A DNA stretch of 64,000 nucleotides from Patescibacteria group bacterium (lineage in GTDB: Bacteria; Patescibacteriota; Patescibacteriia; Patescibacteriales; JAQVLT01). Shown one piece after another: positions 1 through 64,000 of the stretch. The number at the start of each line of letters is the position of its first letter. The first letter of the stretch is position 1. The notes under the pieces were generated by a model. It made no database searches. It was given only the letters and a program-made list of their open reading frames with translations, and was not told where the DNA came from. Made by a program: the position numbers and the translations under genes. The DNA is taken from contig JAQVLT010000002.1 of the NCBI GenBank assembly GCA_028704015.1, positions 9,499-73,498 on the forward strand, given 5' to 3'.

Positions 1-579
1 ATCACCACGGTAACGCATAAACGTTTTTCGTATTTTTCCGAAGAGATATTTTGTGATTTGTTTATTGATAATTTGCGGATTTGTAAACAATTGAAAGATT
101 TTAAATTATATGGATTTATAATCGTTCCCGATCACGCACATTTGTTAATCAAGTCGGGAGAAAAATTTAATATTTCTGAGAAGATGTTTTCAATCAAAAA
201 GCAATTTTCGCATGATGTTAATCGCGTATTGGGTTTTAATGAGCCATATCCTGAAAATGTAAAAATTGAAGGCGGGCAAACGTTTGCCCGCCTTCAATGG
301 GAGAAAATTATTTTTCCACATCAAAAAAGAGTTAATAAATATCGCGAACAATTTATAAACAAATACGGCCACGATCAATTTCAAATCCCACCATTCAAAT
401 GGCAGGAATCGTTCCGTGACCATGTTATCCGTAACGAGAAAGATTTTTTAAATCATCTCAATTATATTTTTAATAATTGTGTCAAACATAATATTTATAA
501 TAATCCGGAAACATATCATTGGTCGTTTTGCAATGAAGAATTTAAGGATTTGATTGATGATTATTTTGGACAAAAATAA
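1..579 (+). CDS. HUH/Y1 IS200-like (RayT-like) transposase-family protein, 5' end outside window
   Basis: Frame is open from nt 1 (ITTVTHKRFSYF...). HUH motif in PDHAHLLIK; Tyr region LNYIFNNC. Paralogue of the 27186 and 62449 genes. Confidence 0.55.
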   Translation: MTTVTHKRFSYFSEEIFCDLFIDNLRICKQLKDFKLYGFIIVPDHAHLLIKSGEKFNISEKMFSIKKQFSHDVNRVLGFNEPYPENVKIEGGQTFARLQWEKIIFPHQKRVNKYREQFINKYGHDQFQIPPFKWQESFRDHVIRNEKDFLNHLNYIFNNCVKHNIYNNPETYHWSFCNEEFKDLIDDYFGQK

Positions 580-759
580 AAATTTAAAATTAAGCAAAAA
601 GCCGATTATATCGCCTTTTTAATGTTGATATTAAAAAAATTGGGAAGTAATCTCTCCTCTACCGGAATTATTCCATTTGTTTTTTTATAAGTAATTAGAT
701 AAACTATACCCAGAAACAGAACTTTGGCAAAAACAATCAGGGGACAGGAGGGTGCGGCC

Positions 760-1029
760 ATGGCGAAAGAAACAGAGGCCAAAGATAATGGGAAAAAAGT
801 CAGAGTCAGAACAGATATTTCACCCGGGGAAGTCAGTTTTACTTTTATTTTCAGGCCGAAGGTCGTGGTGAACGAGCAGGCGTTCAGGGATCTCTACCAG
901 ATGGTCGTTGATGGCTTACTCAAGGTGACCGGTGTTTCGGACACCGCAAAGCTGGCGACCTGGGCCAAGAAACATTTTGGACTCTCTTTTCGCAGGAAGA
1001 AAGAGGGACCGAAAAATATTCCGAGCTGA
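760..1029 (+). CDS. hypothetical small protein (GC-rich island)
   Basis: ATG at 760 preceded by SD ggacaggaggg. The ORF-track start at 724 has no SD. No recognisable motif. Confidence 0.45.
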   Translation: MAKETEAKDNGKKVRVRTDISPGEVSFTFIFRPKVVVNEQAFRDLYQMVVDGLLKVTGVSDTAKLATWAKKHFGLSFRRKKEGPKNIPS

Positions 1030-1154
1030 TTCCGGAAGGAGGGAAAATATAAACAAGTGGTAGGTCGAAGAAGACACTACCTCTTTTTTTATTCAGCACC
1101 ATAAAAATACTGGATGAATTTTGAAAAATATTTTATAATAAAGATATCACAAAT

Positions 1155-1220
1155 CACATAACACACAACACATATCACATAGCAGGCAATTATAGGTTGT
1201 TACATGATATGTGTTATGTG
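1155..1220. repeat. CACATAACACAT-family inverted repeat (family D), gene-less hairpin
   Basis: Left arm cacataacacacaacacatatcacat; right arm acatgatatgtgttatgtg; ~21-nt loop. Lies directly upstream of smc. Confidence 0.6.
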
Positions 1221-1231
1221 TTTATTGAAAA

Positions 1232-3880
1232 ATGTTTTTAGAAAAATTAGAAGTACAAGGGTTTAAATCTTTTGCCAATAAAAATACATTGGTGTTTCCG
1301 GGCATGGTGGACAAAAGCAGGCGCGGCCTTACCGCCGTGGTCGGGCCGAACGGTTCGGGCAAATCCAACGTGGCTGATTCCATCCGCTGGGCGCTCGGAG
1401 AGCAGTCTATGAAAACTCTCAGGGGAAAAAAAGGCGAAGACGTAATTTTTTCCGGATCGGACAAGAAAGGCAAACTCGGCATGGCGGAGGTTTCTTTGTT
1501 TTTGAATAACGCGGATCGCAAGGCGGCGATTGATTATTCGGAAGTAGTTCTGACTCGCCGTCTTTTTCGGAGCGGCGAAAGCGAATACTTAATTAATAAT
1601 TCACGCGCCCGGCTCTATGACGTGCAAATGCTTCTCGCCAAAGCGAATTTTGGCCAGCGAACGTATAGCGTCATCGGACAGGGAATGGTGGAGGGATTTT
1701 TAAACACTTCGCTTGCAGAACGCAAGGAATTTTTTGACGAAGCTACGGGTGTCAAGCAATTTCAAATCAAGCGCGATGAAGCACTCAATAAGTTAAAAAA
1801 CAGTTACGAAAATTTGAGCCAGGCGGAAATGCTTATTTCGGAAATTGAGCCGCGCGTTCAGAGTTTGACGCGCCAAGTGAATAAGCTGAAAAGGCGCGGC
1901 GAGATTGAAACCGAACTCAAAGAATTGCAGATTCAATATTACAGTAAAATTTGGCATGAGATTTTTACCAAATTTTCCGAGCATAATAATCAATATTTGG
2001 AATTGGAAAAAAATAAAATAGAAAAAGCGAAAAAATTGGAACAACTGCAACGCGAACTGGAAAAAATGGAAGCACAAAAAGGCGCGGGCGAGGAATTTGT
2101 TAATTATCAAAAAGAATTAAATAATCTGCAAATCTCCAAAGATTCTTTGGTAAAGCAGATTGCCAAGATTGATGCGCAAATTGAAATGAATCTGGAATCG
2201 CAAGGCAAGTTTGATGTTTCGTGGCTCCTCGCAAAAAAGAACGAACTGGAAGCAGCTATCAAGCGCGCCCAAGAAGAATTGTCTCTGATTTCCGGAAATG
2301 AAAAAGAAGAGAACGAATTAAAAAATCTGGAAAGCGAACGAAAAAATATTGTTGAAAAAATAAAAAATTTAAATGAAAAAGTTTTAAAATTATCGAGCGC
2401 GAAAAGCGGCACAGGCGAACAGCAAACTTTGAACACACGGCTGGAAGATTTGGCGGAACGTTTAAAAAATTTGGAAGGCGAAGAAGATGCGGCGGTAGTT
2501 AGAAAAATAGTTCGGGAAATCAGAGAAGAAATCGTAAAATTGGTTAAGCTGGTTAAAAAAGAAGACGAAAAATTGGAACTGGAAAAAGCGCATCGCGAGT
2601 TAATGAATTTAGGCGAAGAGCGCGAAAAAATATCTTTTAAAATTAATGAATTAAGTTTGAAAATAAATTCCGCGAAAGAAAAAGAGCGGCTATTTTCGGG
2701 CGAATTGGCGAAATTAAAAGTAGAACTGACCGGCATTGAGCAGAAATTAAAAGAGCAAAAGACCGAAGTAAAGACAGGCGATCTGGACGCGGAGAAAAAT
2801 AAGTTAAAAAAAGACTTAGAAAAGATAGAGGCGGAAATGGCGCGCGTCAAGGGTGATGCCGGAGAGATTTCACGGCTGGAAGAAGAGAAGCGAAACAAAC
2901 TATTTGGTTTACAGAAAAATTTGCAGACTCTGCAAAATGAAGTAAATGAATTGTCCAATCGTCTAAATGAAATAAAAATAAATTCTACGCGGTTTGAAAC
3001 TCGTCTGGAAGATTTGGAAACGGAAATCCGGCAGAATCTCGGCGGACTCAAAGAAGTTAAAGAGCGCAAAGTTGAAGGCGAGATTGATATTGAGGCGGCG
3101 TTAGCTAAAATTAATCAGCTCAAGCATCAGCTTGAACAGATCGGTGGTATTGATCCGGAAATTGAAAAAGAATATATTGAGACAAAAGAGCGCTATGATT
3201 TTCTCTCCGGGCAAGTTAATGATTTGAACGGCGCAATCGGTTCTTTGGAAGAAATTATTAAAGAATTGGACGCGGTAATCAAAGAAAGATTTGATAAAGA
3301 GTTTAAAATAATTTCCGAGAAGTTTGAGGAATATTTTAAAATTTTGTTTAATGGCGGAAACGCGAAGATTGTGAAAGTAATGGACGAGCCGACAGTTGAC
3401 AAGGGACAATTGACAGTTGACCTTGAAAATTCAGAAGAGGGCGAATCCTCTTCCGCTAAGGCTACGGAGGACAAGAGCGCGGTTGATTTGAAGCGGATAA
3501 AATATTTGCAGAAGTATAATGCAACCGGTTTGGCGGGTATTGAGATTCAGGCGACGCCTCCGGGAAAAAAGATTAAGTCAATTTCCATGCTTTCGGGCGG
3601 CGAACGCGCTCTCACCGCGATCGGTTTGATCTGCGCGATTATCAGCGCCAATCCTTCGCCATTTGTGGTGTTGGATGAAGTTGATGCCGCGCTGGACGAA
3701 GCGAATTCGGAACGGCTCGCGAAAATTCTTGACGACCTTTCTAATAAAACACAGTTTATCGTCATTACTCACAACCGCGCCGCCATGCGCCGCGCCAATG
3801 TTCTCTACGGTGTGACTATGGGAGACGATGGGGTGTCAAAGTTGCTTAGCGTAAAGTTGGATGATGCCATGGTAAAATAA
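1232..3880 (+). CDS. smc: SMC-family chromosome segregation ATPase, short, no recognisable hinge
   Basis: Walker A GPNGSGKSN; signature LSGGE; Walker B VLDEVDAALD. About 440 aa of K/E-rich coiled coil lies between the head halves. Confidence 0.85.
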   Translation: MFLEKLEVQGFKSFANKNTLVFPGMVDKSRRGLTAVVGPNGSGKSNVADSIRWALGEQSMKTLRGKKGEDVIFSGSDKKGKLGMAEVSLFLNNADRKAAIDYSEVVLTRRLFRSGESEYLINNSRARLYDVQMLLAKANFGQRTYSVIGQGMVEGFLNTSLAERKEFFDEATGVKQFQIKRDEALNKLKNSYENLSQAEMLISEIEPRVQSLTRQVNKLKRRGEIETELKELQIQYYSKIWHEIFTKFSEHNNQYLELEKNKIEKAKKLEQLQRELEKMEAQKGAGEEFVNYQKELNNLQISKDSLVKQIAKIDAQIEMNLESQGKFDVSWLLAKKNELEAAIKRAQEELSLISGNEKEENELKNLESERKNIVEKIKNLNEKVLKLSSAKSGTGEQQTLNTRLEDLAERLKNLEGEEDAAVVRKIVREIREEIVKLVKLVKKEDEKLELEKAHRELMNLGEEREKISFKINELSLKINSAKEKERLFSGELAKLKVELTGIEQKLKEQKTEVKTGDLDAEKNKLKKDLEKIEAEMARVKGDAGEISRLEEEKRNKLFGLQKNLQTLQNEVNELSNRLNEIKINSTRFETRLEDLETEIRQNLGGLKEVKERKVEGEIDIEAALAKINQLKHQLEQIGGIDPEIEKEYIETKERYDFLSGQVNDLNGAIGSLEEIIKELDAVIKERFDKEFKIISEKFEEYFKILFNGGNAKIVKVMDEPTVDKGQLTVDLENSEEGESSSAKATEDKSAVDLKRIKYLQKYNATGLAGIEIQATPPGKKIKSISMLSGGERALTAIGLICAIISANPSPFVVLDEVDAALDEANSERLAKILDDLSNKTQFIVITHNRAAMRRANVLYGVTMGDDGVSKLLSVKLDDAMVK

Positions 3881-5983: not shown

Positions 5984-6036
5984 GTTTTTATTTTAGCATT
6001 AAGTAAAAAGTAAATAAATATCGGCAAAATAAAAAG

Positions 6037-6069
6037 GGGCGCCAGCTCCGTAGTTTGGAACTGGCGCCC
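6037..6069 (-). terminator. rho-independent terminator of the 406-aa gene
   Basis: gggcgccag / ctggcgccc stem, with a T-run on the minus strand (aaaaa at 6031-6035 on plus). Confidence 0.6.
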
Positions 6070-6078
6070 AGTGGTTTT

Positions 6079-7299
6079 TCATTTGGACAAGAGACACATG
6101 GACGCAAAGTTTGCGTCCTGAAACGCTTTTTCATCCCTACCAACTTCCCCTGAAAGTTGGTAGTCAAGAGCATCTTCCAGATATCGTCTATTTTCTGGAG
6201 AAACGCTCTTCCTCAAAGTCGCCAACCGCTGAAGCGGCTGGCGCACCAAACTCACGAACTCATCGCGTGCCAAAAGCGGCGCCGCGATGAACTCCAGAAA
6301 CATCCGCTCCAACTCAAGAAGGCTGGAGGGCTGAAATTCCCAACACCCCCCGCCCTCTTGACGGATTTTTGCTAAATCCGCCTTCTCGCAGGCCTGAGTC
6401 ACTTCTTCTCTTGCCTGTGACAAGAGAAGTTTGTTTTCCTTGGCCAGTTTCATAATCCTACTGGCCACATAGACTGAAGTGGCTCTGAAAATATCCACTT
6501 CATCCCAATCCTGGGATGTTTCGTATTCCTCCTCCCAGGATTCTTTATCATCCTGGTTAGCAGCAAACTCCTTGGCCGCTTCCAGAAAAATTTCCGCTGC
6601 GATTAAAGCAGCGTCTATATTTTCCACTGCCTCAGCCACAAACATCTCGTGGCTGGTTTCTTTGCGAGGATAAACTTTAACCTCGCTAACATTCAGTGCC
6701 CACCATCCCGCCGAATGGTAGGCTAATTGTGAGCCGTTCACCTGACGAAAGTCCGCCAGGTGAGAGCAAATTGCCCGATATGTGATGCAAGCCTTGCGCC
6801 ACGTATCAAAAATTTCCTCAAAATCCTTTTGGTGGCAAACATGTGCCACCCTTTCCGCCCTTTCCAGCTCGCGGCAAAAAGCACTCACCGCGTCTTTCAA
6901 GGGCTCCCCGGATTTTTGAGGAGGGATTTCCCCCTCCAAATTAAAATATTCGGGATTCTCCCTCATTTTTTTTATTGCCCTGATCAACCAAATTGACAGG
7001 GCAAAAGAAGGGGTTCCGATGTGATATCCATCGGTACCAACTGAAATTCCGATATATCCCCCGAAGGATTTACCCTCAAGAGGAATAACCTCGCCCGACT
7101 CCCTCTGTCGAAAAATCGGCTTATTGAGAGTGGCAGGGGTCGGGAAATGGTTCCAGTAAACATAGAAAGTTCCCATTTCTGGGAAATTCCATACCTCGAA
7201 ATCCCTATCGCCATTATGAAGCCGATCGTCATGATAAAGCTCGGCCTCTTTAAAAGATAAAAAAATTTTTATCCCGTTTCCATCTTCTTTTATTCTCAT
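6079..7299 (-). CDS. hypothetical protein (GC-rich island), 406 aa
   Basis: Long ORF with SD ggagaggag 7 nt before the ATG. No motif recognised. Confidence 0.6.
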   Translation of the reverse strand: MRIKEDGNGIKIFLSFKEAELYHDDRLHNGDRDFEVWNFPEMGTFYVYWNHFPTPATLNKPIFRQRESGEVIPLEGKSFGGYIGISVGTDGYHIGTPSFALSIWLIRAIKKMRENPEYFNLEGEIPPQKSGEPLKDAVSAFCRELERAERVAHVCHQKDFEEIFDTWRKACITYRAICSHLADFRQVNGSQLAYHSAGWWALNVSEVKVYPRKETSHEMFVAEAVENIDAALIAAEIFLEAAKEFAANQDDKESWEEEYETSQDWDEVDIFRATSVYVASRIMKLAKENKLLLSQAREEVTQACEKADLAKIRQEGGGCWEFQPSSLLELERMFLEFIAAPLLARDEFVSLVRQPLQRLATLRKSVSPENRRYLEDALDYQLSGEVGRDEKAFQDANFASMCLLSK

Positions 7300-7356
7300 T
7301 TTTTTCTCCTCTCCCCGCCTTCGCCCGCGGGGTGGGCCATGAAATTTTAAAAGTTC
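7300..7356 (-). promoter_or_regulatory. conserved 5' leader, copy 1 (hairpin next to the SD)
   Basis: Sense strand reads ttttaaaatttcatGGCCCACCCCGCGGGCGAAGGCGGGGAGAGGAGaaaaaaATG. Near-identical to the leader at 7959-8015. Confidence 0.5.
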
Positions 7357-7406
7357 TCAACTCTTTGAGCCGGCCAACCGAAATGGTTGATAAGCTCGAA
7401 AAGTTG

Positions 7407-7449
7407 GGGGGACGAATTGGAAGTTGGTATCTTCTCAAATTCGTCCCCC
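7407..7449 (-). terminator. possible terminator hairpin after the 162-aa gene
   Basis: 12-bp arms gggggacgaatt / aattcgtccccc. Only a weak T tract follows on the minus strand. Confidence 0.35.
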
Positions 7450-7472
7450 TGTTTATGGTTCCTGGAGAGAGT

Positions 7473-7958
7473 TCACTCCTCCAGGAGGGGCAAGTCGCCC
7501 CTTGAGCTTTCAACCTCGAACTGGTTGAAAGCTCCGTAATGAAGTTTCAGCCCCAAAGGACCAATCGGGGCAAAAACTTCGATGTCAATCCGGGACAGGT
7601 CAGAAATCAGCTTGTCCTCTCCCTGGAAAATCGGGGTGAACCTGCAAAGCAGGCACCCCTTCTGGAAACTTCCCCGGTAGCCCTTGAAGGTCACCGAGCC
7701 GGGTGTGAATTCATACACCCCCTTTTTGGAGGCCGTGGTATAGCGCACCAGGGCCTCTCCGATTTCAATCTCGGCGTTGCCTTCCCATGATGGAAGGTCG
7801 CCGATGGAGCAACCTTTATAAGGCCACCCCTCAAGGCCAGTCACGCTACGCTGACCGGTCCAGAGTTCGGCGGCAAACTTCGCCGCCGCAAACAGCTTTT
7901 CCGTTTTTTGGAAATCCAGAGCCAAACGCTCCGGAGAAGAAAGAAGGGTCACTTTCAT
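7473..7958 (-). CDS. hypothetical protein (GC-rich island), 161 aa
   Basis: Start moved to the ATG at 7958 (MKVTLLSS...), which follows SD ggaaggag. No motif recognised. Confidence 0.55.
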   Translation of the reverse strand: MKVTLLSSPERLALDFQKTEKLFAAAKFAAELWTGQRSVTGLEGWPYKGCSIGDLPSWEGNAEIEIGEALVRYTTASKKGVYEFTPGSVTFKGYRGSFQKGCLLCRFTPIFQGEDKLISDLSRIDIEVFAPIGPLGLKLHYGAFNQFEVESSRGDLPLLEE

Positions 7959-8015
7959 ATTTTCTCCTTCCCCGCCTTCGCCCGCAGGGTGGGCCAAATA
8001 TTTTTAAAAAGAACT
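7959..8015 (-). promoter_or_regulatory. conserved 5' leader, copy 2
   Basis: Sense strand reads ttttaaaaatatttGGCCCACCCTGCGGGCGAAGGCGGGGAAGGAGaaaatATG. The 29-nt core differs from copy 1 at one position, C to T, which keeps a G-U pair. Confidence 0.5.
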
Positions 8016-8249: not shown

Positions 8250-8284
8250 CCTCACCCTATCCCTCTCCTTTGCAAGGAGAGGGG
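8250..8284. repeat. CCCTCTCC/GGAGAGGG hairpin (family C)
   Basis: cctcaccc tat ccctctcc tttgcaa ggagagggg. The 3' arm sits 9 nt before the ATG at 8293 and looks like an SD. Confidence 0.6.
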
Positions 8285-10260: not shown

Positions 10261-10328
10261 AATATTCGGCAATAGAAATCGCCTATCGGGCGGTTTTTTG
10301 ATTTTAATAATTTTTTAAAATAAAAAAG

Positions 10329-10370
10329 CCCGACCGTTTACGTTCAGAACTTTGAACGTAAGCGATCGGG
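10329..10370 (-). terminator. rho-independent terminator of the lipoprotein gene
   Basis: Long hairpin cccgaccgtttacgttca ... tgaacgtaagcgatcggg, with a T-run on the minus strand. Confidence 0.65.
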
Positions 10371-10380
10371 TGAAGTTGGT

Positions 10381-11481
10381 CTACCGGAGAAAGACCGTTG
10401 TTGACATTTGAGGCGTGTCCGAGAGTTCGTGCTCACCGAGTTCGTCGGTCCACGCCCAACCCGAGATTTTTGACGCGATGACATCTCCGCTCGTCGCGCC
10501 GACGGTGTCAAGGAAGACGACAAACCTCCGCATGCAGTTAGCGGAGATATTGTTTTTGTCAAAGAAGAGAAGGCGGAATATGTTTTTGCCTTCCGTCCAC
10601 TCAACATTTTGGCGGTATATTACCTCTGCGGTTCCGGCATCAACAACCCAGAACACGCCGGAGCCAGTCCAGGTCAGCCAGGTTTCCAGATCCAGCCAAT
10701 TCAAGGTCACGTCTTGGCCGATCTGGCTGGAATTGGATGCCTGGAAATCTGTGGCTTTGGCTCTGGGCAGCCATTGTTCGCTCGGCACTTGTTGTGCCGC
10801 AATCACAACCTGAGCCCCGACCAGCACCAGCTCGTTGCTAATCGGCTTAGTCGCGGGTTGGTCCGTGTGGCAAGTCAGAAATTTGCCATCCGTGACGGTC
10901 CAGCCTTCAAGACTCTGGCCGTCTGCAGAATCGAAGAAGAGCTTGAAACTCTTCGGGCCGCCGAAGTATTCAGATGGTGGAGTATAAAAAATTTCCGCGT
11001 AGACAGTGCGATGCGCGAGAACGGCGACCTCGAAGTTGTCGAAAATCACCATCCCACCTGCTGCCGATATCTGGTGAGCAATTTCCTCGCCCGAGGATCG
11101 GAGGGAGAATTCTCCGGGCGGATCCTCACCGGTCTCCGACACGACCTTCACCCCGAACCTGCTGATAACCGCATTCTCGGCAACGTAGAAGTGAGGATTG
11201 CACGCCGCCACTTTCTGTCCGCTGAGAAGAACGTGCTGTTGATTGCCACCCATGTTGTCGGGCGGGTCAAAAGAAACTTGAGCCACGACCGACTCCTCAG
11301 GTATTGGAATAGTGGTTGTAGTAGACGTGGTGGGCGCGGTGGTTGTTGTGGTGGATGCGGTCGAAGTCGTCGTAATTGTAGGGAAAAATGCCGAAAAGTT
11401 TCCAGTTTTTTCGGGCCGGGTGTTGTTGCATCCGGTTACGATTGCCAGCAATACCGCGAATACCGCCAACGCTTTATTCAA
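10381..11481 (-). CDS. secreted lipoprotein of unknown function (GC-rich island)
   Basis: A TTG start at 11481 preceded by SD gaaggag gives (M)NKALAVFAVLLAIVTGC, a signal peptide with a lipobox. A Thr/Ser-rich linker (TTTSTASTTTTTAPTTSTTTT) follows. Confidence 0.6.
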   Translation of the reverse strand: MNKALAVFAVLLAIVTGCNNTRPEKTGNFSAFFPTITTTSTASTTTTTAPTTSTTTTIPIPEESVVAQVSFDPPDNMGGNQQHVLLSGQKVAACNPHFYVAENAVISRFGVKVVSETGEDPPGEFSLRSSGEEIAHQISAAGGMVIFDNFEVAVLAHRTVYAEIFYTPPSEYFGGPKSFKLFFDSADGQSLEGWTVTDGKFLTCHTDQPATKPISNELVLVGAQVVIAAQQVPSEQWLPRAKATDFQASNSSQIGQDVTLNWLDLETWLTWTGSGVFWVVDAGTAEVIYRQNVEWTEGKNIFRLLFFDKNNISANCMRRFVVFLDTVGATSGDVIASKISGWAWTDELGEHELSDTPQMSTTVFLR

Positions 11482-11707
11482 TTTGTTGCTCCTTCTGCCG
11501 TGAAATGAACGTGAAAACACAAGAAATAGCCAAAGGCAACCGACCTGCTAATTTATAACATTTTTATAGTTTTGTCAAGTATTTAATATTTTGTGCTATA
11601 ATGTAAATGAAATTTTAAATTTTAAGTTTTAAATTATTAGTTAATTTATAATTTAGTCATTTAAAATTGATTTAAAATTTAGAATTTAGAATTTATAATT
11701 TTACTTT

Positions 11708-14870: not shown

Positions 14871-14958
14871 TTTTAGGTTTTAGGTTGTGGGTTTTTGGTT
14901 GAAATATTTGGTTTATCCCTGATTACTTATTACTATTTACTAATTACTATATTATTTT

Positions 14959-16945: not shown

Positions 16946-17045
16946 AGATTTTTAGGAGCTTTAAGATTTTTAGGATTGTTAGGATATTATATCTTAAAGA
17001 TCCCAAAGATCCTCATAATCCTAATAATCCTAATAATCCTATTTA
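16946..17045. repeat. ~100-nt AGGATT/AATCCT palindromic element
   Basis: ttaagatttttaggattgttaggatatt ... cataatcctaataatcctaataatcct. A second copy lies at 35578-35680. Confidence 0.5.
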
Positions 17046-19236: not shown

Positions 19237-19331
19237 ATTGTTAAATGGTTATATTGTCAAATTGTTTTATTATTTTATTATTTTTTATCAAAAAGAGCTC
19301 GCATCAAGAATTGAATTCAGGTGCGATTTTT

Positions 19332-19360: not shown

Positions 19361-19407
19361 ATAAGCAAGGAAGTTTTTACGAACCTTTTTCAGGATAAGG
19401 AGGAATT

Positions 19408-22774: not shown

Positions 22775-22778
22775 ATAA

Positions 22779-44318: not shown

Positions 44319-44931
44319 CCTGTCTGCCGGCAGGCAGGCTAAATAAATTCAAAATACTAAATCTAAATGATCAAAACAGCGACTAATTATTACGATTTGG
44401 AAGAAAGAACGTTAAAATTCGCTAAAATGGTAAGAGAATTTATTAAGAAATTGCCGAAAACAATTTCTAATATAGAAGATAGTAAACAATTAGCTCGTTC
44501 ATCCGGATCGGTTGGCGCTAACTACATTGAAGCTAACGAAGCATTAAGCAAGAAAGACTTTGTCATGAGAATAAAAATTTGCCGCAAAGAAGCGAAAGAA
44601 TCAAAATATTGGCTGTTACTAATTGATTGCCAAAAAGAATTAATACTAGAACGTGACACCTTAATTAAAGAAGCAACCGAACTAACTAAAATATTTGGAG
44701 CAATTTTAGAGAAATGCAAATAAAATAGTTGTATAATAGTGTTTTGAGTTTAAATAATTAGAATTTTGAATTTGTTTAGGATTTAGAGTTTAGTGCTTAG
44801 GGTTTCAGGAATGTTATAGCAGGAAGCGCAGGAATTAACTCTAATTTTTTCACGAATCACGCTCACCTTAGAAAAGAAAATTTAAAATTTAGTAATTTAT
44901 CATTCAATTAACCTGCCTGCCGGCAGACAGG
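44319..44931. mobile_element. 613-bp cassette: four-helix-bundle gene between inverted family B palindromes and AT-rich subterminal inverted repeats
   Basis: 44319-44338 (cctgtctgccggcaggcagg) is the exact reverse complement of 44912-44931. Inner arms (ctaaat.../aaattcaaaat versus attttgaattt/...atttag) match the gene-less element at 58564-58695. Confidence 0.5.
44367..44723 (+). CDS. four-helix-bundle protein (23S rRNA intervening-sequence protein family)
   Basis: SSGSVGANYIEANEALSKKDFVMRIKICRKEAKESKYWLLLI. Confidence 0.75.
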   Translation: MIKTATNYYDLEERTLKFAKMVREFIKKLPKTISNIEDSKQLARSSGSVGANYIEANEALSKKDFVMRIKICRKEAKESKYWLLLIDCQKELILERDTLIKEATELTKIFGAILEKCK

Positions 44932-50702: not shown

Positions 50703-50792
50703 GGGCATAGTAAAATAGTAATTAGTAAATAGCACTTAATTAAAACGGCTTTGCCCTATTTACTGTTTACTATTTACTGTTTACTAAATACC

Positions 50793-52333: not shown

Positions 52334-52423
52334 TTAACCACGCCCTTTAACATCAATCTTTTTAATCTTCTCTTGGAGCTGAGTTCCAAAAAAGGTGATT
52401 TACGATCGCAAAGGAGGAAAAAC

Positions 52424-52954
52424 ATGGAAGATCCCCGTAGCGAATTTCAACGAGCTCAAGGTATTATTGCTATCGAGAGCACAGTTTATAGGGACGGAGA
52501 AAATCTAGAGACGGTTTCCGAGCTTCCTTTCCTGTGGATGACAAACATAGGAAAGTCTATCGTTAAATGTTTTCTTGAGTTGTTGGATTTCCGAGTCAAA
52601 GATTTTTCAGCCAGTTTCACTTTTCTGAAAAGAAACGGGACGGCTGACTTCAGGATCCTTCTAGTGGATCGAAGCAACAAAATACACGAGTTTTTCGGTA
52701 CTTGGAGCTTCGGGGGCTGTAAGTTGTTGAACATTGGCATGGCTTTCTCGGCGCACCCCGATAAAACTCCATGTCTGGCGCCTATAACATACGCGCAAAA
52801 CATCGCGGCTGAGGATGTGGCCCTCGACATCACCCGGCTTCTCATGGAGGAAATGATTAACGAAGAGAAGGCGGAAATAACATCTCGGAAGTTAATCTTG
52901 TCAAGGTTGCAAGCCCAGGTGGAAAAAGCCGGGCTTGTTCCCAACAAAAAGTGA
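52424..52954 (+). CDS. hypothetical protein (GC-rich island)
   Basis: Start moved to MEDPRSEF after SD aaaggagg. No motif recognised. Confidence 0.5.
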   Translation: MEDPRSEFQRAQGIIAIESTVYRDGENLETVSELPFLWMTNIGKSIVKCFLELLDFRVKDFSASFTFLKRNGTADFRILLVDRSNKIHEFFGTWSFGGCKLLNIGMAFSAHPDKTPCLAPITYAQNIAAEDVALDITRLLMEEMINEEKAEITSRKLILSRLQAQVEKAGLVPNKK

Positions 52955-52968
52955 AATAGCAACCTCGT

Positions 52969-52996
52969 GAGCCGCAAAATATCGCGGCTCTTTTTT
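52969..52996 (+). terminator. rho-independent terminator
   Basis: gagccgc / gcggctc stem plus tttttt. Confidence 0.65.
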
Positions 52997-53072: not shown

Positions 53073-53339
53073 ATGTACAAGGCACTTGGTTTTTTAATAA
53101 TATTTGGCTTGCTCTCCGTATTTTTTCAAAGGAGAGCCAAAAAGCGTTTTGAAACGTGGATTTCTTCCGCTGAAAATTTTAAGATAGCAGAAAGGAAAAT
53201 TTCACCTGTCGAAAGGACGAGGCTGTCCTTGATAGTTGGCAAAAACGAGCGGCTCTTTATCATAATTAGGCGGTGGAAGCGCTTATTTGTGTTTGCTACT
53301 GTAATAAGTGCGATCATCTTTTTGCTTTATACCATTTGA
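53073..53339 (+). CDS. hypothetical two-TM small protein
   Basis: SD aaggaggggg. Hydrophobic N- and C-terminal helices. Confidence 0.45.
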   Translation: MYKALGFLIIFGLLSVFFQRRAKKRFETWISSAENFKIAERKISPVERTRLSLIVGKNERLFIIIRRWKRLFVFATVISAIIFLLYTI

Positions 53340-54455: not shown

Positions 54456-54515
54456 ATTGTTTATTTCTTAAAATTATTTAATTATTTAGAATTATATCAT
54501 ATTTATAAAAAAAAG

Positions 54516-54545
54516 ACCCGCTCATACCGATTGGTTTGAGCGGGT
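54516..54545 (-). terminator. rho-independent terminator of the HD-GYP gene
   Basis: acccgctca / tgagcgggt stem, with a long T-run on the minus strand. Confidence 0.65.
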
Positions 54546-55174
54546 TAGGACGTGAATGAACTTAAAGCCTGGCGGAGGCATTGCCGGCTCTCAAGAAAAG
54601 CCTCATAGGCCAGGGGATGAAAGTGCGAGGGTTGTGTTCGCGGTCCTTCATCACCGTTAAATATCGCAACAGCTTGTTCGAAAGAGTTTCTTTCGCGATA
54701 GGGGCGATTTGATGTTAATGCATCAAATACATCCACTATCGAAGCTGCGCTTATTTCCACTTCGATAGAATTTCCGCAACAACCGTAGGGATATCCATCG
54801 CCAGAACGCTTCTCGTGGTGAAGCAAGGCTATCCGCGATGCTAATTTTTGAAATTCCGAGAGTTGCGGTCCTTGGAGAAGGAAGTGTAATATATTTGCCC
54901 CAAAGATTGGATGCCTTTTTATAATCTCCCATTCTTTTTGGTCAGGAGGGCCTTTTTTGTAGAGAATTTCATTTGGCACCCACATCTTCCCCAAATCGTG
55001 CAACTTGATCGCCAGTTTGTAGACAGCTATTTCTTCCGTCTTCATACCGAGCGCTTGGGCGATAATTTCAAAATACACGCTCGTTCTGTTTCCATGAGAC
55101 GCTGTCCACTTGCGAGGAATGGATAGCCATGCAAAAATGGCAGCCACTTGTTTTTCAACCATTTCATTATTCAT
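54545..55174 (-). CDS. stand-alone HD-GYP-type HD-domain phosphohydrolase (GC-rich island)
   Basis: Start moved to MNNEMVEKQ after SD aaggagggggg. HDLGK and HHEKRSGDGYPYG motifs. Confidence 0.7.
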   Translation of the reverse strand: MNNEMVEKQVAAIFAWLSIPRKWTASHGNRTSVYFEIIAQALGMKTEEIAVYKLAIKLHDLGKMWVPNEILYKKGPPDQKEWEIIKRHPIFGANILHFLLQGPQLSEFQKLASRIALLHHEKRSGDGYPYGCCGNSIEVEISAASIVDVFDALTSNRPYRERNSFEQAVAIFNGDEGPRTQPSHFHPLAYEAFLESRQCLRQALSSFTS

Positions 55175-55244
55175 AAGTGCCCCCCTCCTTTTGTGGCGAC
55201 AGCGATAGTAAAGGCCAAAGAATATTATTAAATTTTCTGCCATT

Positions 55245-55422: not shown

Positions 55423-56151
55423 ATGTCCGGACATTCCAAATGGGCAACAACTAAAAGGCATAAAGCGGTTATTGATTCTAAGCGCGCCGCTGTTTTTACT
55501 AAAATCGCCAACATAATTACCATTGCCGCGCGTGAAAAAGGCGGTGATCCAACGACTAATTTTTCTTTGCGCATGGCAATGGACAAAGGACGGGCGGTTA
55601 ATATGCCAAAAGATAACATTGAACGCGCGATCAAGCGCGGTACCGGCGAAGGTGATGGGGCGCAGATTGAGGAAATAATTTATGAAGGCATTGGCCCGGT
55701 GAAATCTCAGTTTATAATTAAATGTTTGACAGATAGTCGTAACCGCACAGCCTCCGAGGTTCGTCATATTTTTTCTGAATATGGCGGAGCGCTTAGTTCT
55801 GTTATGTGGAATTTTTCTAAAAAAGGAGTTTTGCGAATTATGAATGAAGAATTACAAAGCAAGAATTTAATAAATGAGGAATTTGAGTTAGAGCTGATTG
55901 ATGCTGGCGCCCAGGATATTTTGAAAGAAGAAGAAGGCTGGACAATTTATACTAAGATGGAAGATTTGGTAAAAGTTAAGAATTTTTTAGAAAGTAAAAA
56001 TTTAGCAACAGAATCAGCTGATATTGAGTATGTTGCCAAAGATACGGTAAAAGTTGAAAATGCGGAAGATCAAGAAAAAATGGAAAAATTTATTGAAGAA
56101 TTGGAAAATAATGAAGATGTGAGCGATTATTATACGAATGCAATCACATAA
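55423..56151 (+). CDS. yebC: YebC/PmpR-family transcriptional regulator
   Basis: MSGHSKWATTKRHKA start and full-length family pattern. The last codons run into a family D repeat. Confidence 0.9.
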   Translation: MSGHSKWATTKRHKAVIDSKRAAVFTKIANIITIAAREKGGDPTTNFSLRMAMDKGRAVNMPKDNIERAIKRGTGEGDGAQIEEIIYEGIGPVKSQFIIKCLTDSRNRTASEVRHIFSEYGGALSSVMWNFSKKGVLRIMNEELQSKNLINEEFELELIDAGAQDILKEEEGWTIYTKMEDLVKVKNFLESKNLATESADIEYVAKDTVKVENAEDQEKMEKFIEELENNEDVSDYYTNAIT

Positions 56152-56218
56152 CACATATCACATAACACATATCACTTAGCAATAATTGTTTTGTGATATG
56201 TGTTATGTGCTATGTGAT
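56143..56218. repeat. family D (CACATAACACAT) inverted repeat, gene-less hairpin
   Basis: atcacataacacatatcacataacacatatcac / gtgatatgtgttatgtgctatgtgat with a 17-nt loop. Overlaps the yebC stop and the ruvC start. Confidence 0.65.
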
Positions 56219-56687: not shown

Positions 56688-57086
56688 CACATAACACATA
56701 GCATATGAATTTTCATGATAGCTTAAAAATAAAAATGCATTTGTATGTTAAACAAGTATATAAAGTGACAAAAAATTTTCCGCGTGATGAGTTGTACGGC
56801 GTTACCTCGCAATTCAGAAGAGCGGCGATGTCTGTTATTTTAAATTATATAGAAGGTTATGCTCGAAGAAAGGGTAATAATTGTAAAGTGTATAAAAATT
56901 TTTTAGAGATATCTTACGGCTCGCTTCGAGAGACAAAATATCTAATTTATTTTTCTTTCTCTGAAAATTATATCAATCAAAAAAATTATAATTTTTTAAT
57001 TAGCCAAGCCGATGAGCTAGGCAAAATGATCTGGACCACAATAAAAAGCAACTAATTTGCTATATGTTATGTGTTCCATGATATGC
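56681..57086. mobile_element. cassette: four-helix-bundle gene between inverted family D motifs
   Basis: Left catatagcacataacacatagcatatg; right gctatatgttatgtgttccatgatatgc. They share cacataaca in opposite orientation. The repeat is imperfect. Confidence 0.4.
56705..57055 (+). CDS. four-helix-bundle protein (23S rRNA intervening-sequence protein family)
   Basis: FPRDELYGVTSQFRRAAMSVILNYIEGYAR...SYGSLRETKYLIYF. Confidence 0.7.
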   Translation: MNFHDSLKIKMHLYVKQVYKVTKNFPRDELYGVTSQFRRAAMSVILNYIEGYARRKGNNCKVYKNFLEISYGSLRETKYLIYFSFSENYINQKNYNFLISQADELGKMIWTTIKSN

Positions 57087-58563: not shown

Positions 58564-58695
58564 ATCCTAAATTCTAAGCACTAAATTCTAAACAAGCATA
58601 AAATTAAAATGTTTTAAATTCAAAACAGTTTTGGATTTTGAAATTTGATATTTGGATTTATTTAGTATTTAGAGTTTAGTATTTAGAATTTTAAA
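58564..58695. repeat. 132-bp MITE-like palindromic element, gene-less relative of the 44319-44931 cassette
   Basis: Left cctaaattctaagcactaaattctaaa...aaattcaaaac; right attttgaaattt...tttagagtttagtatttagaa. Fills the whole glgA-GH57 spacer. Confidence 0.55.
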
Positions 58696-61874: not shown

Positions 61875-62495
61875 ATGTCCGTGGAAACCCATATTTATGA
61901 TAAGCGTTTTTTTAAGAATACCATCAAATTGGAAGATGATTCTGCGGCGGCCGCAGTTTCTATTTTGATAAAATATTTTTTGCCCAGATCAGTTATTGAT
62001 ATTGGTTGCGGTTGTGGAATTTATTTGAAAGAATTTTCAAATCAAGGCGTAGAAATTTTTGGATACGACGGCGCTCCGGCAGCGCTTGAATCTTCACTGG
62101 TTGGCGACAAAATCAAGCTTCATGATTTATGCGTGCCATTGGTAATAAATAAAAAATTTGATCTTTGCCTCTGCGTTGAAGTCGCTGAACATTTACCGCC
62201 CGAATACGCTAATATTTTAGTTGAGACTTTGGCAAATTTATCTGACATTATTATTTTTTCTGCCGCCACTCCGGGCCAAGGTCCGCGTTCCATCGGACAT
62301 ATCAACGAACAGCCGCCGGAATATTGGCTAGAAAAATTTCAATCTAAAAATTTTATTTTTGACCAAAATATATCTTTAAAGATAAAAAAAGAAATGGAAG
62401 AAAAGGGTGTTGTCTGGTGGATTACTAAGAATTTAATGATATTTAAAAATGACCCGTGTCAAACCCGAGCCGGAAAAAATTTACCACATTTATAA
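61875..62495 (+). CDS. class I SAM-dependent methyltransferase
   Basis: Motif I IDIGCGCG. The 3' tail overlaps the 5' fragment of the disrupted RayT-like gene in another frame. Confidence 0.65.
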   Translation: MSVETHIYDKRFFKNTIKLEDDSAAAAVSILIKYFLPRSVIDIGCGCGIYLKEFSNQGVEIFGYDGAPAALESSLVGDKIKLHDLCVPLVINKKFDLCLCVEVAEHLPPEYANILVETLANLSDIIIFSAATPGQGPRSIGHINEQPPEYWLEKFQSKNFIFDQNISLKIKKEMEEKGVVWWITKNLMIFKNDPCQTRAGKNLPHL

Positions 62496-62515
62496 CCTGC
62501 CTACCGGCAGGCAGG
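62496..62515. repeat. family B palindrome interrupting the YHIYN|RG motif
   Basis: cctgcctaccggcaggcagg. Removing these 20 nt restores one continuous ORF. Confidence 0.7.
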
Positions 62516-62660
62516 TCGTGGCGTTGAAAAAAGAAAGATATTTATGGATAAATGGGATTATATTAGATTTTTAGAAAGTACGAGAGAGTTTAATTGTGAT
62601 GAACCGATTGGCAGTCTCTATTTAAAAAAATATCTCGCCCAAAAAAACAAAGTTAGCCAA

Positions 62661-62692
62661 GGTGTCGGACACCCTATAGGGTGTCCGACACC
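62661..62692. repeat. perfect 32-nt palindrome inside the RayT-like reading frame
   Basis: ggtgtcggacaccctatagggtgtccgacacc encodes GVGHPIGCPTP. It occupies the same position as the family A palindrome in the 27186 paralogue. Confidence 0.7.
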
Positions 62693-63155
62693 TAAACAAG
62701 AGATTTTAGTTGAATATTTAGCTTATTGTCTACTGCCTAATCATTTTCATTTTTTAATTATAGAAAAATCAGAGGGAGGTATCCCAAAATTCATGAAAAG
62801 GCTAAGCGGTGGCTATACTAATTATTTTAACAAAAAATATCTTCGCACCGGTTCATTGTTCCAAGGGAAATATAAAATATTTGAAGTAAAGTATAGTCAT
62901 TTTTTAAAATTATCCGTTTATGTTAATTGTAATGCCGAAGTGCATAAAATCAACCGAGCGGAAAATTGGCCATGGTCAAGCTATTTGGATTATATCAATG
63001 AAAGAAACGGAACTTTATGCAATTAAGAATTAATTTTGGAAGAATTTGGCAGCCGAAATAATTTTAAAAAATTTTGCCAAACAATTTTACCTGATATAAT
63101 AAAAAATAAAGAGTTATCGGAAAATTTAACTGAATAATTAAATTGCAAAGGGTTC

Positions 63156-64000
63156 ATGAAAAACAAGGGGGAAAAATTAAAAATTTTAATGCTCGCGGCT
63201 GAAGCCGCTCCGCTGGTTAAAGTTGGAGGGCTTGGTGATGTAGTAGGCAGTTTGCCGCCGGCTTTGGCGCGGCTGGGGTGCGATGTCAGGATTATTATTC
63301 CTAAATACGGGGGAATTGATGAAAAAAAGTATAAACTTAAAAAGTTTTTATCCGATATTGAAATTTCCACAGCGGATAAAATTGAAAAAATAAATTTATG
63401 GCAGGCGAATCTTCCTGGTAGCAAAGTGCCGGTTTATTTTATTGAAAATAATAATTTTTTTAGTAGCCCCGACCCTTACGCCGGAAACAATTCAGAAAAA
63501 TTTCTTTTCTTTTTGCTGGCAGTAATGCGCGTCATGCCGCTTATTAATTTCGTTCCCGACATTCTGCATTGCCACGATTTTCACGTAGCCATGGCTATTG
63601 ATTTAATCAAAGTGGAAAATCAATATAATAATTTTTTTAAAAAGATTAAAACTCTCTATACTATTCATAATTTGAATAACCAAGGGCAAACCGGCATAGA
63701 AACTTTGCGCACAGGAAATCTGAATAAGAATTTGCTTGCTTCGTTGAGCAGAGATTCTGACGATGGCGATATTAATTTTATGGTGCAAGGAATTATTAAT
63801 GCCGATTTGGTGAACACCGTGAGCCCGACATACGCCAAAGAAATCTCCACTTCTATTTACGGCGCTGGGTTGGAAAAGGTTATTAGGCAAAACCAGTATA
63901 AAATTTTCGGAATTTTAAACGGCGTTGATGTAAATTTTTTTAACCCGGAGAAAGATAAATATATTTTTAAGAAATATAGCGCAAAGACTTTAAAAAATAA
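63156..64000 (+). CDS. glgA: second glycogen/starch synthase paralogue, 3' end outside window
   Basis: MKNKGEKLKILMLAAEAAPLVKVGGLGDVVGSLP... stays open to the window end. It is absent from the ORF track because no stop codon is reached. Confidence 0.8.
   Translation, partial: MKNKGEKLKILMLAAEAAPLVKVGGLGDVVGSLPPALARLGCDVRIIIPKYGGIDEKKYKLKKFLSDIEISTADKIEKINLWQANLPGSKVPVYFIENNNFFSSPDPYAGNNSEKFLFFLLAVMRVMPLINFVPDILHCHDFHVAMAIDLIKVENQYNNFFKKIKTLYTIHNLNNQGQTGIETLRTGNLNKNLLASLSRDSDDGDINFMVQGIINADLVNTVSPTYAKEISTSIYGAGLEKVIRQNQYKIFGILNGVDVNFFNPEKDKYIFKKYSAKTLKN

Follow-up and report, generated by a model that had tools for sequence, protein, structure and literature searches.

GC-rich genes in conserved, Shine-Dalgarno-led slots of an AT-rich Patescibacterial genome

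Laterally acquired genes are, in the model of Lawrence and Ochman, reportedly recognised by their atypical composition and its amelioration, and Omelchenko, Koonin and colleagues are said to have described xenologous or orthologous displacement of genes in situ, within conserved operons or neighbourhoods. The present analysis concerns a stretch of 64,000 nucleotides (the window; positions 9,499 to 73,498 of contig JAQVLT010000002.1, assembly GCA_028704015.1) from a bacterium of the Patescibacteria group, in which GC-rich genes preceded by Shine-Dalgarno (SD) sequences, here called islands, lie dispersed among AT-rich, mostly SD-less backbone genes. Like genes acquired according to the first model, the islands have an atypical composition bounded at gene borders, and one of them, purM, combines donor-like G+C contents of the first and second codon positions (GC1, GC2) with a lowered content of the third (GC3) and an identifiable donor phylum; unlike such genes, they are single units without mobility genes, tRNA targets or flanking repeats, and three have orthologues in the same slot of related genomes, at distances that follow the species tree. 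As in displacement in situ, order and regulation are kept and an open reading frame (ORF) is exchanged for a distant homologue (the dihydroorotate dehydrogenase gene, DHODH, of the relatives' loci L009 and L121; purM as against another gene of the AIRS family); here, however, many positions of one genome would be affected at once, by alleles of one compositional class and at exactly the SD-using positions.

Lateral transfer into Candidate Phyla Radiation (CPR) genomes is already known, as is SD-poor translation. In the part of it considered here, a report on gene exchange in Patescibacteria places 83% of the transfers detected within the Patescibacteria themselves; Desulfobacterota are one of the groups that donate now and then, and the genes moved include metabolic ones (mSystems 2025, PMC12455944). 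That part agrees with the window in that genes are transferred individually and metabolic functions are involved; it gives up to 13% of genome length as transferred, against 21% of this window, and mentions neither conserved slots, nor retained native promoters, nor a link with SD sequences. SD-poor initiation, known from Bacteroidetes and from part of the Parcubacteria, in only 48% of which the anti-SD motif was detected (Tsurumaki et al., 2022, PMC9297842), likewise leaves most genes SD-less behind A/U-rich, weakly folded leaders; here, in contrast, the canonical anti-SD is kept (loci L033 and L045), and a fixed minority of families has strong SDs throughout the clade. Integron cassettes, too, are promoter-less single ORFs, flanked by a short leader on the 5′ side and a hairpin on the 3′ side, exchanged as units and served by resident promoters, but the units described here are dispersed and have promoters of their own, with no intI, attI/attC family or tandem array. 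Pfam scans of all genes of the window found no integrase domain in any ORF, the two Y1_Tnp-like genes being conserved residents, and the 3′ hairpins of the islands differ from one another in sequence and resemble intrinsic terminators. In those portions of the literature that were compared, we found no description of a family-specific split into SD-led and SD-less genes across a CPR clade, of alien composition confined to SD-led slots, or of native, alignable promoters around alien orthologues.

Two compositional classes of genes and two kinds of start site

Composition and SD statistics were computed on 62 curated genes of the window. Their GC3 is bimodal, a mixture of two components (means 0.61 and 0.365, weights 0.22 and 0.78) having a Bayesian information criterion of -93.0 against -80.5 for a single component, so that the compositional split proposed in an earlier note on this DNA is real; the hand counts given there (38/60 G+C at 37381-37440, 16/60 at 46441-46500) were exact. 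The ten GC-rich units listed in that note sum to 13,722 nt, or 21.4% of the window, with a GC content of 0.528 against 0.372 elsewhere. They are single genes or single operons, dispersed at a spacing of about 6 kb, and the GC change points sit 30-80 nt beyond the ORF ends on either side; each unit thus consists of an ORF with its SD leader and terminator hairpin, the A/T-rich promoters lying outside. Most of the ten deserve the name, but 53073-53339 (GC 0.38) does not, 54545-55174 (GC 0.45) is intermediate, and 52424-52954 is weak (GC3 0.53). The units are listed below with one backbone gene for comparison (dG, energy in kcal/mol of the SD duplex defined further on; aa, amino acids; TM, transmembrane segments).

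Island 1, 709-1084, plus strand: ORF 760-1029 (89 aa); SD GGACAGGAGGG, dG -10.8; GC 0.48, GC3 0.57; change points at 709 and 1084
Island 2, 6036-7996, minus strand: ORFs 6079-7299 (406 aa) and 7473-7958 (161 aa); GC3 0.50 and 0.65; SD dG -9.1 and -8.8
Island 3, 10328-11549, minus strand: ORF 10381-11481 (366 aa, TTG start); SD GAAGGAG, dG -8.0; GC 0.54, GC3 0.63
Island 4, 19326-20495, plus strand: phosphoribosyl pyrophosphate (PRPP)-synthase-like gene 19408-20442; promoter TTGACA-17-TATTTT at 19332-19360; SD AAGGAGG; GC3 0.64; terminator 20468-20493
Island 5, 21059-21407, plus strand: ORF 21107-21403 for a 98-aa Cys-rich protein; SD GGGGAAGGAGGG, dG -12.2; GC 0.51, GC3 0.56
Island 6a, 24122-25950, plus strand: pyrK-pyrD fused dihydroorotate dehydrogenase gene 24217-25950; GC3 0.58; start region TTTGACAA-N16-TAATTT-AAATTAACACAA...AAGGAGAAGGTGCC-ATG
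Island 6b, 26002-27185, minus strand: divergent dihydroorotase-like (pyrC-like) amidohydrolase gene 26002-27090; GC3 0.62; SD GAGGAGGG; promoter and leader in 27091-27185 (TTGACA...AACTAATTTAATTATAACA)
Island 7, 31104-32290, plus strand: canonical purM 31183-32232 (TIGR00878, 401 bits); weak SD AAAGGA; upstream of a conserved methyltransferase gene
Island 8, 36699-40537, plus strand: three-gene membrane-protein operon; TTTGACAA box at 36699; intrinsic terminator at about 40497-40545
Island 8 ORFs: 36807-38279 (490 aa, about 5 TM), 38276-39148 (290 aa, N-terminal TM), 39165-40475 (436 aa, about 6 TM)
Island 9 (weak), 52370-52991, plus strand: ORF 52424-52954 (176 aa); SD AAAGGAGG, dG -11.6; GC 0.46, GC3 0.53; promoter-like site TTGACA-16-TATACT at 52306; terminator 52969-52990
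Small membrane protein, 53073-53339, plus strand: 88 aa, SD-led, not GC-rich (GC 0.38, GC3 0.44); SD AAGGAGGGGG, dG -11.9
HD-domain protein, 54515-55217, minus strand: SD-led gene 54545-55174 (Pfam HD_5, 7e-18); GC 0.45, GC3 0.44; SD AAGGAGGGGGG, dG -12.1
Backbone glyA, 21445-22774, plus strand: gene 21527-22774; extended -10 promoter (TGATATAAT); A/U-rich, SD-less leader of about 50 nt; dG +1.7; upstream GC 0.05

The deviation in composition and codon usage expected of laterally acquired genes is present in the islands on three counts. At matched local GC content of the first two codon positions (GC12), island GC3 exceeds that of the backbone by 0.12-0.23; GC3 rises with GC12 in the backbone with a slope of 0.77 (r=0.54), whereas it is independent of GC12 in the islands (slope 0.11); and the backbone has a GC3 of 0.53 at 4-fold vs 0.27 at 2-fold degenerate sites, a signature gone from the islands (0.65 and 0.57). 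Spacers are A/T-rich, including a non-coding stretch of 600 nt at 35572-36170, and the spread of per-gene GC3 in the window is the largest among the 31 loci compared. Island 8 reaches a GC content of 0.57-0.58 and a GC3 of 0.69-0.73, with the order GC3>GC1>GC2, and the left change point of Island 9 is weak (likelihood ratio, LR, 1.9). The backbone is itself uneven: its codon usage is odd for a genome of 37% GC, with GCG, GCC, CCG, GGC and CGC preferred, and GC3 varies inside smc (1232-3880), recQ (27962-30097) and comM, with segments of 0.6-0.76 (both ends of smc, for example) and 0.24-0.36 elsewhere. Across the clade, in about 60 loci of relatives, the gap between 4-fold and 2-fold sites is +0.21 to +0.26 in the SD-less families, and +0.09 and -0.05 in the DHODH and PRPP-like orthologues.

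An SD was called where the duplex energy with ACCUCCUUA was -7 kcal/mol or stronger. It precedes 11 of the 14 genes with a GC3 of at least 0.50 vs 4 of the 48 others (Fisher p=7.8e-7). The starts proposed in the earlier note all came back as SD-preceded ones (760, 7299, 7958, 11481 (TTG), 36807, 38276, 52424, 53073 and 55174). That note had placed an SD before every GC-rich unit and before none of the AT-rich housekeeping genes, a rule that holds broadly, although purM (31183) and 39165 show only a weak AAAGGA (-5.3). Forty-four of the 48 AT-rich genes are SD-less; two of the exceptions are hairpin arms and the other two are the SD-led units of low GC3 at 53073 and 54545. One fairly GC-rich gene, comM (11708-13228, GC3 0.50), is nevertheless SD-less. 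Ahead of the AT-rich genes at 8293, 22833, 23220 and 42525, the purine stretches that resemble an SD are 3′ arms of hairpins of 8-10 bp of the CCCCUCUCC/GGAGAGGGG type.

The two classes of start differ in their surroundings as well. The A+U content from -25 to -1 is 0.79 in SD-less and 0.49 in SD-led genes, and the region from -25 to +35 is predicted to fold at -4.1 and -9.9 kcal/mol, respectively (p=1.7e-6); operon-internal genes of the backbone are SD-less too, and the backbone of the window thus shows the SD-less majority with A/U-rich, weakly folded starts that characterises SD-independent initiation. The loss of the anti-SD does not accompany it: the window holds no 16S rRNA gene of its own, and the 16S 3′ ends of the clade loci L033 and L045 read GGATCACCTCCTTTCT, with the end GGAUCACCUCCUUUCU and the canonical anti-SD CACCUCCUU kept, so that SD pairing is available to the clade. 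Leaderless backbone mRNAs were considered and rejected, as clear TTGACA-17-TATAAT or extended -10 promoters stand 20-60 nt before several starts and are followed by A/U-rich leaders; backbone leaders are therefore short and SD-less, not leaderless.

The islands were also said to be driven by TTGACA-type promoters and to share hairpins with AT-rich neighbours. A scan recovered the promoter-like sites at 19332, 52306 and 55273, and both hairpins (25958-25964 and near 53352); the proposed promoter at 24123 fell below the -10 threshold, yet it coincides with the conserved TTTGACAA box of DHODH. This clade-typical -35 box is enriched three-fold in the window (15 sites vs 4.7 expected), stands ahead of both gene classes and also precedes the PRPP-like and 36807 units. 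A shared 'pyr-box' operator (TTTWARATTAAC) was rejected, with 9 matches vs 5.4 expected.

Some further elements near the start sites deserve mention. Perfect hairpins of 8-10 bp, CCCCTCTCC-loop-GGAGAGGGG, lie at 8261-8283, 22792-22815, 23185-23208 and about 43575-43615 (minus), 8-20 nt ahead of AT-rich genes (for a TrmB-like regulator, DUF559, folD and a glycoside hydrolase). The arms are SD-like on one side and anti-SD-like on the other, and these SD mimics could be repetitive extragenic palindrome (REP)-like elements, terminators that have no T-run, or switches that sequester the SD. Directly upstream of SD-less starts there are short tandem arrays (1144-1181, 11642-11709, 14922-14954, 17009-17041, 35574-35620, 50759-50785, 56145-56175, 58659-58691 and others), mostly of period 7 and sometimes of 8, 9 or 14, with a unit that differs from spacer to spacer (ATATCAC, TAATTTA, ATTACTA, ATCCTAATA, TTTACTG, CACATAA, TATTTAG); island leaders are without them, and they may serve as low-complexity, structure-free leaders or as promoter spacers. 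Both ORFs of Island 2 are preceded by a near-identical, SD-containing leader of about 40 nt, TGGCCCACCCYGCGGGCGAAGGCGGGGA(G)AGGAGAAAA (7300-7345 and 7959-8004, minus), whose CCCYGC/GCGGGG stem overlaps the SD; its folding z-scores (-1.1 and -1.9) are non-significant. The PRPP-like unit is bracketed by a 15-nt direct repeat, TTTTTTTGACAAAAA (19326-19340, 20494-20508), in which the T-tail of a terminator runs into a -35 box.

Slots, promoters and ancestry among relatives

Judging from sequence, the organism is a Falkowbacteria-like Patescibacterium of the CPR: by glyA its nearest species-level genomes (80-87% identity) bear the names Candidatus Falkowbacteria, Parcubacteria group or Patescibacteria group, and the gene set of the window is CPR-typical (type IV secretion system (T4SS)-type pilins, three 23S_rRNA_IVP, DUF559, comM, recQ, smc, infB, glgA and GH57, by Pfam scans). 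Genomic loci of relatives, numbered with an L, were used for comparison, the sister locus L002 being JGI 3300037810, Ga0376277_0000713. The succession radical-SAM, PRPP-like, NUDIX, serine hydroxymethyltransferase (SHMT), FolD, DHODH, pyrC-like (minus), RecQ and, farther downstream, a methyltransferase recurs in L002, L004, L009, L099, L121, L126 and L128. The order in L126 is radical-SAM, PRPP-like, ..., SHMT, FolD, DHODH, RecQ, purN; that in L004 and L087 is NUDIX, SHMT, FolD, ..., DHODH, RecQ, methyltransferase; and that in L002 is DHODH, Y1_Tnp, RecQ, ..., purN, AIRS-like, methyltransferase. As in the window, the pyrC-like gene of L128, L099, L121 and L009 lies on the opposite strand and adjoins DHODH or RecQ.

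Three of the annotated islands are thus found in the same position in relatives (L002, L128, L126, L009, L099, L121), with identities reaching down to 46-63% for the PRPP-like, DHODH and pyrC-like genes. The pyrC-like orthologues are 52-63% identical, have a GC3 of 0.32-0.39 (L099, L121, L009) or 0.50 (L128) and carry an SD in all four loci; the PRPP-like orthologue of L126, in the same slot after radical-SAM, is 49-50% identical, and in this locus of uniformly 38% GC both the PRPP-like gene and DHODH have strong SDs and a neighbour-like GC3 of 0.34-0.35. The DNA upstream of DHODH and pyrC can be aligned with that of relatives and consists of an invariant TTTGACAA, a spacer of 16-17 nt, a TAtTTT box and a AGATTAAC-type motif, followed by the SD. 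The family-less ORFs of the islands were matched in no relative locus, the sister loci not reaching those regions.

SD use follows the family. Whatever their GC content, orthologues in relatives are SD-led in 7/8 cases for DHODH, 4/4 for the pyrC-like gene and 4/4 for the PRPP-like gene, as against 2/55 for SHMT, 0/58 for FolD, 0/25 for radical-SAM, 0/15 for HU and 0/9 for Y1_Tnp. SD use is accordingly conserved in the clade as a property of particular families and is native to these slots, and the SD as a hallmark of foreign genes has to be given up. The same applies to the idea that the nucleotide genes newly supplement a dependent symbiont: since the relatives already carry PRPP-like, DHODH, pyrC-like and purN genes and one of the AIRS family, the first three in the same slots and at distances that follow RecQ, the capacity for nucleotide synthesis is ancestral in the clade. 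That GC-rich orthologues might occur in sisters at the same positions, with SD sequences used genome-wide, had been named as a finding that would speak against foreign origin, and half of it is seen: the orthologues are present at these positions, but they are not GC-rich and SD use is not genome-wide. The proposal that ORFs of foreign composition were plugged into native regulatory DNA survives for the aligned DHODH and pyrC promoters and for purM, and fails in so far as three of the annotated genes are old residents.

Ancestry was compared by distance and identity matrices rather than by reconciled trees. DHODH and the pyrC-like gene of the window are nearest to those of L002 and L128 (59-63%), and the window and L002 are equidistant from every outgroup, tracking RecQ and SHMT; a metagenome scan with RecQ found no sister nearer than L002 (78%). 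The nearest homologues of DHODH (59-60%) occupy the same slot within the clade. Its protein has the Pfam domains DHO_dh, DHODB_Fe-S_bind and NAD_binding_1 (NF005574, 285 bits). The PRPP-like protein (112 bits against TIGR01251, cut-off 113) belongs to a rare CPR family, whose top matches are 50% identical and, where named, come from Nomurabacteria or Patescibacteria. The pyrC-like gene, which converges with DHODH on a hairpin common to both (25964-25983), has matches below threshold only (NF003271, 82 bits, cut-off 405; TIGR00857, 81, cut-off 279; Pfam Amidohydro_1, 21, cut-off 25).

DHODH itself has not always stayed the same within its slot. The genes of L009 and L121 are only 37% identical, though RecQ (87%), SHMT (91%) and pyrC (80%) of these loci agree well, and this exchange, seen also in L016 and L104, is a xenologous replacement within the clade. 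In L009 and L121, moreover, DHODH and pyrC have a GC3 about 0.1 under that of their own backbone, a polarity opposite to that of the window, so that their composition can part from that of the backbone either way. Their GC3 is ordinary in the sisters L002 and L128 (0.47-0.50), and a GC-richer member of the clade exists in L100, whose backbone GC3 is mostly 0.5-0.7. SD-led genes are richer in GC3 in 24 of 30 loci of relatives, by 0.026 on average (p=0.003), and by 0.06-0.09 in L002. The contig of L002, of 44.7% GC, also holds an Ala/Lys-rich ORF (20448-21734, minus) with a GC of 0.65 and a GC3 of 0.89, unrelated to the islands of the window.

In the window, DHODH and the pyrC-like and PRPP-like genes top every relative in GC1, GC2 and GC3 and in the content of Gly, Ala, Arg and Pro; the flanking genes (recQ, glyA, folD and those for the radical-SAM protein and the methyltransferase) are typical. 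The regressions of Muto and Osawa are said to underlie the expected ratios between codon positions, and the shifts of the three resident genes match the equilibrium ratios of a genome about 11-17 GC points richer, with GC3 not in the lead. The case of purM is different. Its best 120 matches, at 54-59% identity, are, where named, mostly from Desulfobacterales/Desulfosarcina and other Proteobacteria, and none is named CPR; in the relatives the slot holds purN and a different AIRS-family gene that is merely 26-31% identical. With GC1, GC2 and GC3 of 0.57, 0.41 and 0.63, against 0.56, 0.39 and 0.75 in a purM of the donor type (L132), it combines donor-like first and second positions with a lowered third, the pattern of partial amelioration, and purM is a xenologue of Desulfobacterales type. 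Among the four annotated enzyme genes it alone has its closest homologues outside the lineage, those of DHODH, the pyrC-like and the PRPP-like genes lying in the clade at distances that match RecQ; likewise, displacement in situ is seen in purM as against the relatives' AIRS-family gene, while for the other three replacement is deduced from composition alone.

The remaining islands have no assigned family. Searches were negative for Island 1 (Pfam, PHROG), for both ORFs of Island 2 (Pfam, NCBIfam, PHROG, PDB and viral sequences, among the searches run), for the Island 3 protein (families, PDB, viral), which begins like a lipoprotein (LLAIVTGC) and contains a linker rich in Thr, and for Island 5 (Pfam, PHROG), itself present in an independent Logan contig. 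The Island 8 operon has no Pfam or PHROG match; its 490-aa and 436-aa proteins have none in NCBIfam, the latter none in PDB and the former no viral one, and a search of 5.8 billion proteins with the 490-aa one returned nothing but itself. No record turned up when the PRPP-like and 290-aa proteins were looked up by exact sequence. Among ten family-less island proteins no PHROG match was significant (the sole one, phrog_19157, has E=0.005 and 17.9 bits), IMG/VR held no relatives of three family-less ORFs, and a PDB sequence search with three of them gave nothing below E=0.1. An origin of these ORFs in a phage or plasmid was rejected on the PHROG and IMG/VR results. Neither paralogy among the island proteins nor homology to the GC-rich ORF of L002 was found; the family-less ORFs still look like genuine membrane or secreted proteins.

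Note also two families of repeats in the window. Perfect palindromes of 34 nt, e.g. GAAACTTAGTTTCGGGTACCCGAAACTAAGTTTC, lie at 18960-18993, 27377-27410, 27917-27950 and 62660-62693, two of them inside two Y1_Tnp (IS200-like) ORFs and one between Y1_Tnp and recQ, and a second family of the CCTGCCTGCCGGCAGGCAGG type occupies spacers near 43590, 44330, 44930 and 62500. The Y1_Tnp gene beside the DHODH/pyrC slot is kept in the sister L002 (64% identity). Together these palindromes and Y1_Tnp suggest a system of the REP/RAYT (REP-associated tyrosine transposase) kind. The three 23S_rRNA_IVP genes (41148-41513, 44367-44723 and 56705-57055, the last also matching bAvd-like) may have been left behind as accessory genes by diversity-generating retroelements, no reverse transcriptase being present in the window, or belong to an unrelated four-helix family.

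Proposed gene replacement in the slots and its rivals

The explanation we favour, with a probability of about one half, is a gene-by-gene replacement or insertion, slot by slot, in which alleles of donors richer in GC entered and were tolerated solely where an SD frees initiation from local A/U-richness. It builds on what was observed: GC3 is bimodal and linked with SD, slots and promoters are conserved, SD use goes by family, purM is of foreign ancestry, and DHODH has been swapped among relatives. The clade would use two modes of initiation, with about three quarters of its genes on short, unstructured, A/U-rich and SD-less leaders, and a minority of families (PRPP-synthase-like, pyrK-pyrD and pyrC-like, and in the window also genes for membrane and secreted proteins) with a strong SD that would pair with the canonical anti-SD. 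ORFs in SD-led slots would have been replaced or newly inserted one at a time by copies that had long evolved at about 50-57% GC, donated by GC-richer clade members in the case of the PRPP-like, DHODH and pyrC-like genes and by a Desulfobacterales-like bacterium in that of purM, the native promoters, leaders and terminators staying in place. Since SD-independent initiation needs an A/U-rich, unfolded start, a GC-rich composition would be tied to the SD: a GC-rich allele could not supply such a start and would last only in places where the ribosome is recruited by an SD. Of the genes with clade orthologues, 3/3 SD-led and 0/~20 SD-less ones are GC-rich (hand-calculated exact p ~6e-4). The conserved promoter and leader motifs that flank the convergent DHODH-pyrC pair could act as anchors for recombination. 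We infer replacement, as opposed to alteration in place, for the three resident genes, and the role of the SD as selective filter.

Several results weigh against this explanation. The search for a donor allele was negative: for DHODH, PRPP-like, pyrC-like and purM genes the nearest sequences reach only 50-63% identity, where a recent transfer predicts more than 90%. The distances of DHODH and pyrC to all relatives are those expected of vertical descent, without excess branch length, and no recombination junction was seen inside the DHODH, pyrC or PRPP-like ORFs: GC3 is high along the whole ORF save for A/T-richer first 25-50 codons, and in every pair the identity to the sisters is at its lowest towards the N-terminus. 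Beside the islands there are no integrase, attachment repeats or mobile-element genes, and a search for target-site duplications and inverted repeats at their ends gave low-complexity A/T runs alone, apart from the terminator/-35 repeat around the PRPP-like unit. Homologous replacement between about 37% and about 55% GC needs anchors, for which there are the short promoter and leader motifs alone, and ten clean events are a demanding assumption. Finally, the DHODH and PRPP-like orthologues of relatives also lack the codon signature of the backbone, which may thus reflect the class of a gene and not the time of its residence.

The main competitor is that vertically inherited SD-led genes drifted or were driven GC-rich where they stood, for example by GC-biased gene conversion, by being less exposed to C-to-T deamination or by a slackening of the selection that favours A/U-rich mRNA, with the SD-less genes left A/T-rich, so that gene-scale 'isochores' tied to the mode of initiation would arise. 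Orthologues, slots, promoters and SDs are all ancestral; GC-richness in all three resident SD-led genes and in none of some 20 resident SD-less ones, the outgroup distances shared with L002, the slight GC3 excess of relatives' SD-led genes together with the GC3 0.89 ORF of L002, the want of a donor nearer than 50-63% for any island and of a visible junction, the missing 4-fold/2-fold signature in relatives' DHODH and PRPP-like genes, and an island-backbone gap that lies mainly at 2-fold, transition-only sites all sit well with it. We nevertheless consider it unlikely, though not remotely so: the A/T-rich spacers and the stretch at 35572-36170 speak against a general GC-ward pressure, GC3 does not run ahead of GC1 and GC2 as an ongoing shift would predict, the foreign purM has the same island composition, the nearest relatives L002 and L128 are ordinary in their DHODH and pyrC, the reverse polarity of L009 and L121 fits exchange better than a one-way drive, and selection that holds 78% of the genes off mutational equilibrium would seem implausible in a symbiont with a small genome. 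A GC-ward mutational shift laid bare by weakly expressed genes was likewise judged unlikely, the non-coding DNA being A/T-rich. A broader conception, in which SD-led positions are composition-insulated 'expression sockets', open to alleles of whatever base composition, and form the exchangeable part of a CPR genome otherwise SD-less, their genes being exchanged between lineages far apart in GC by way of conserved promoter, leader and terminator anchors or diverging in place into gene-scale isochores, the mode of initiation deciding which genes are concerned, is speculative and on the whole doubtful.

The remaining alternatives fare worse. Taken literally, the foreign-gene reading would have all ten units come from outside into native intergenic DNA, bringing with them the donor's SD and a new capacity for nucleotide synthesis. 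The Desulfobacterales-like, partly ameliorated purM, the homologue-less ORFs that cannot be traced within the clade and the A/T-rich spacers and promoters around the islands agree with this, but three of the annotated islands, out of four, already speak against it, the PRPP-like, DHODH and pyrC-like genes being CPR families in the same slots of relatives, where the SD is kept at ordinary GC and nucleotide synthesis was already present; it is improbable for the set as a whole and fits purM and perhaps the homologue-less genes. A chimera of assembly or binning, in which an AT-rich contig would have received GC-rich pieces that belong to another organism, would account for the abrupt switches at gene borders. 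It was rejected and is scarcely credible: a second metagenome-assembled genome (MAG), GCA_028707515.1 (JAQWAV010000003.1), is collinear with 21183-42232 of the window (21,050 nt, 6 mismatches, 99.97% identity), Island 8 included, and Logan contigs from the runs SRR22315502 and SRR22315503 match 19823-24704 and 28165-33220, across the borders of islands 4-7, with an identity of 99.98-100%, so that four independent assemblies agree and together span the borders of islands 4 to 8, which lie in unique sequence with functional promoter and terminator layouts common to relatives. Equally hard to believe is an artefact of gene calling, with GC-rich stretches that are non-coding (RNA genes or chance long ORFs), as might be suspected from the many overlapping ORFs that GC-rich DNA gives on both strands and from six or more island ORFs without homologue or family. 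RNA genes were rejected, because Rfam finds three tRNAs (33187-33596, away from island borders) and no other family in the window; the codon-position pattern GC3>GC1>GC2 holds, four islands have clear enzyme homology, and the family-less ORFs carry transmembrane segments or a lipobox, an SD, terminators and, in one case, an open frame of 490 codons.

Meaning for genome renewal and annotation

The annotation of CPR genomes needs start-site models of two classes; composition-based island finders would mark ancestral, syntenic genes as foreign, and binning by GC or tetranucleotide content may lose such genes. If divergence in place were the true course, the window would offer an example, rare among bacteria, of compositional domains on the scale of single genes. 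If, on the other hand, replacement within the slots is what took place, a minimal symbiont genome would renew part of its metabolism and of its cell surface by the exchange of single ORFs in fixed, natively regulated slots, its architecture remaining undisturbed, and the mode of ribosome binding would select the slots open to DNA of foreign composition, thus joining two subjects that are mostly kept separate, the evolution of SD-less translation and the barriers to lateral transfer.

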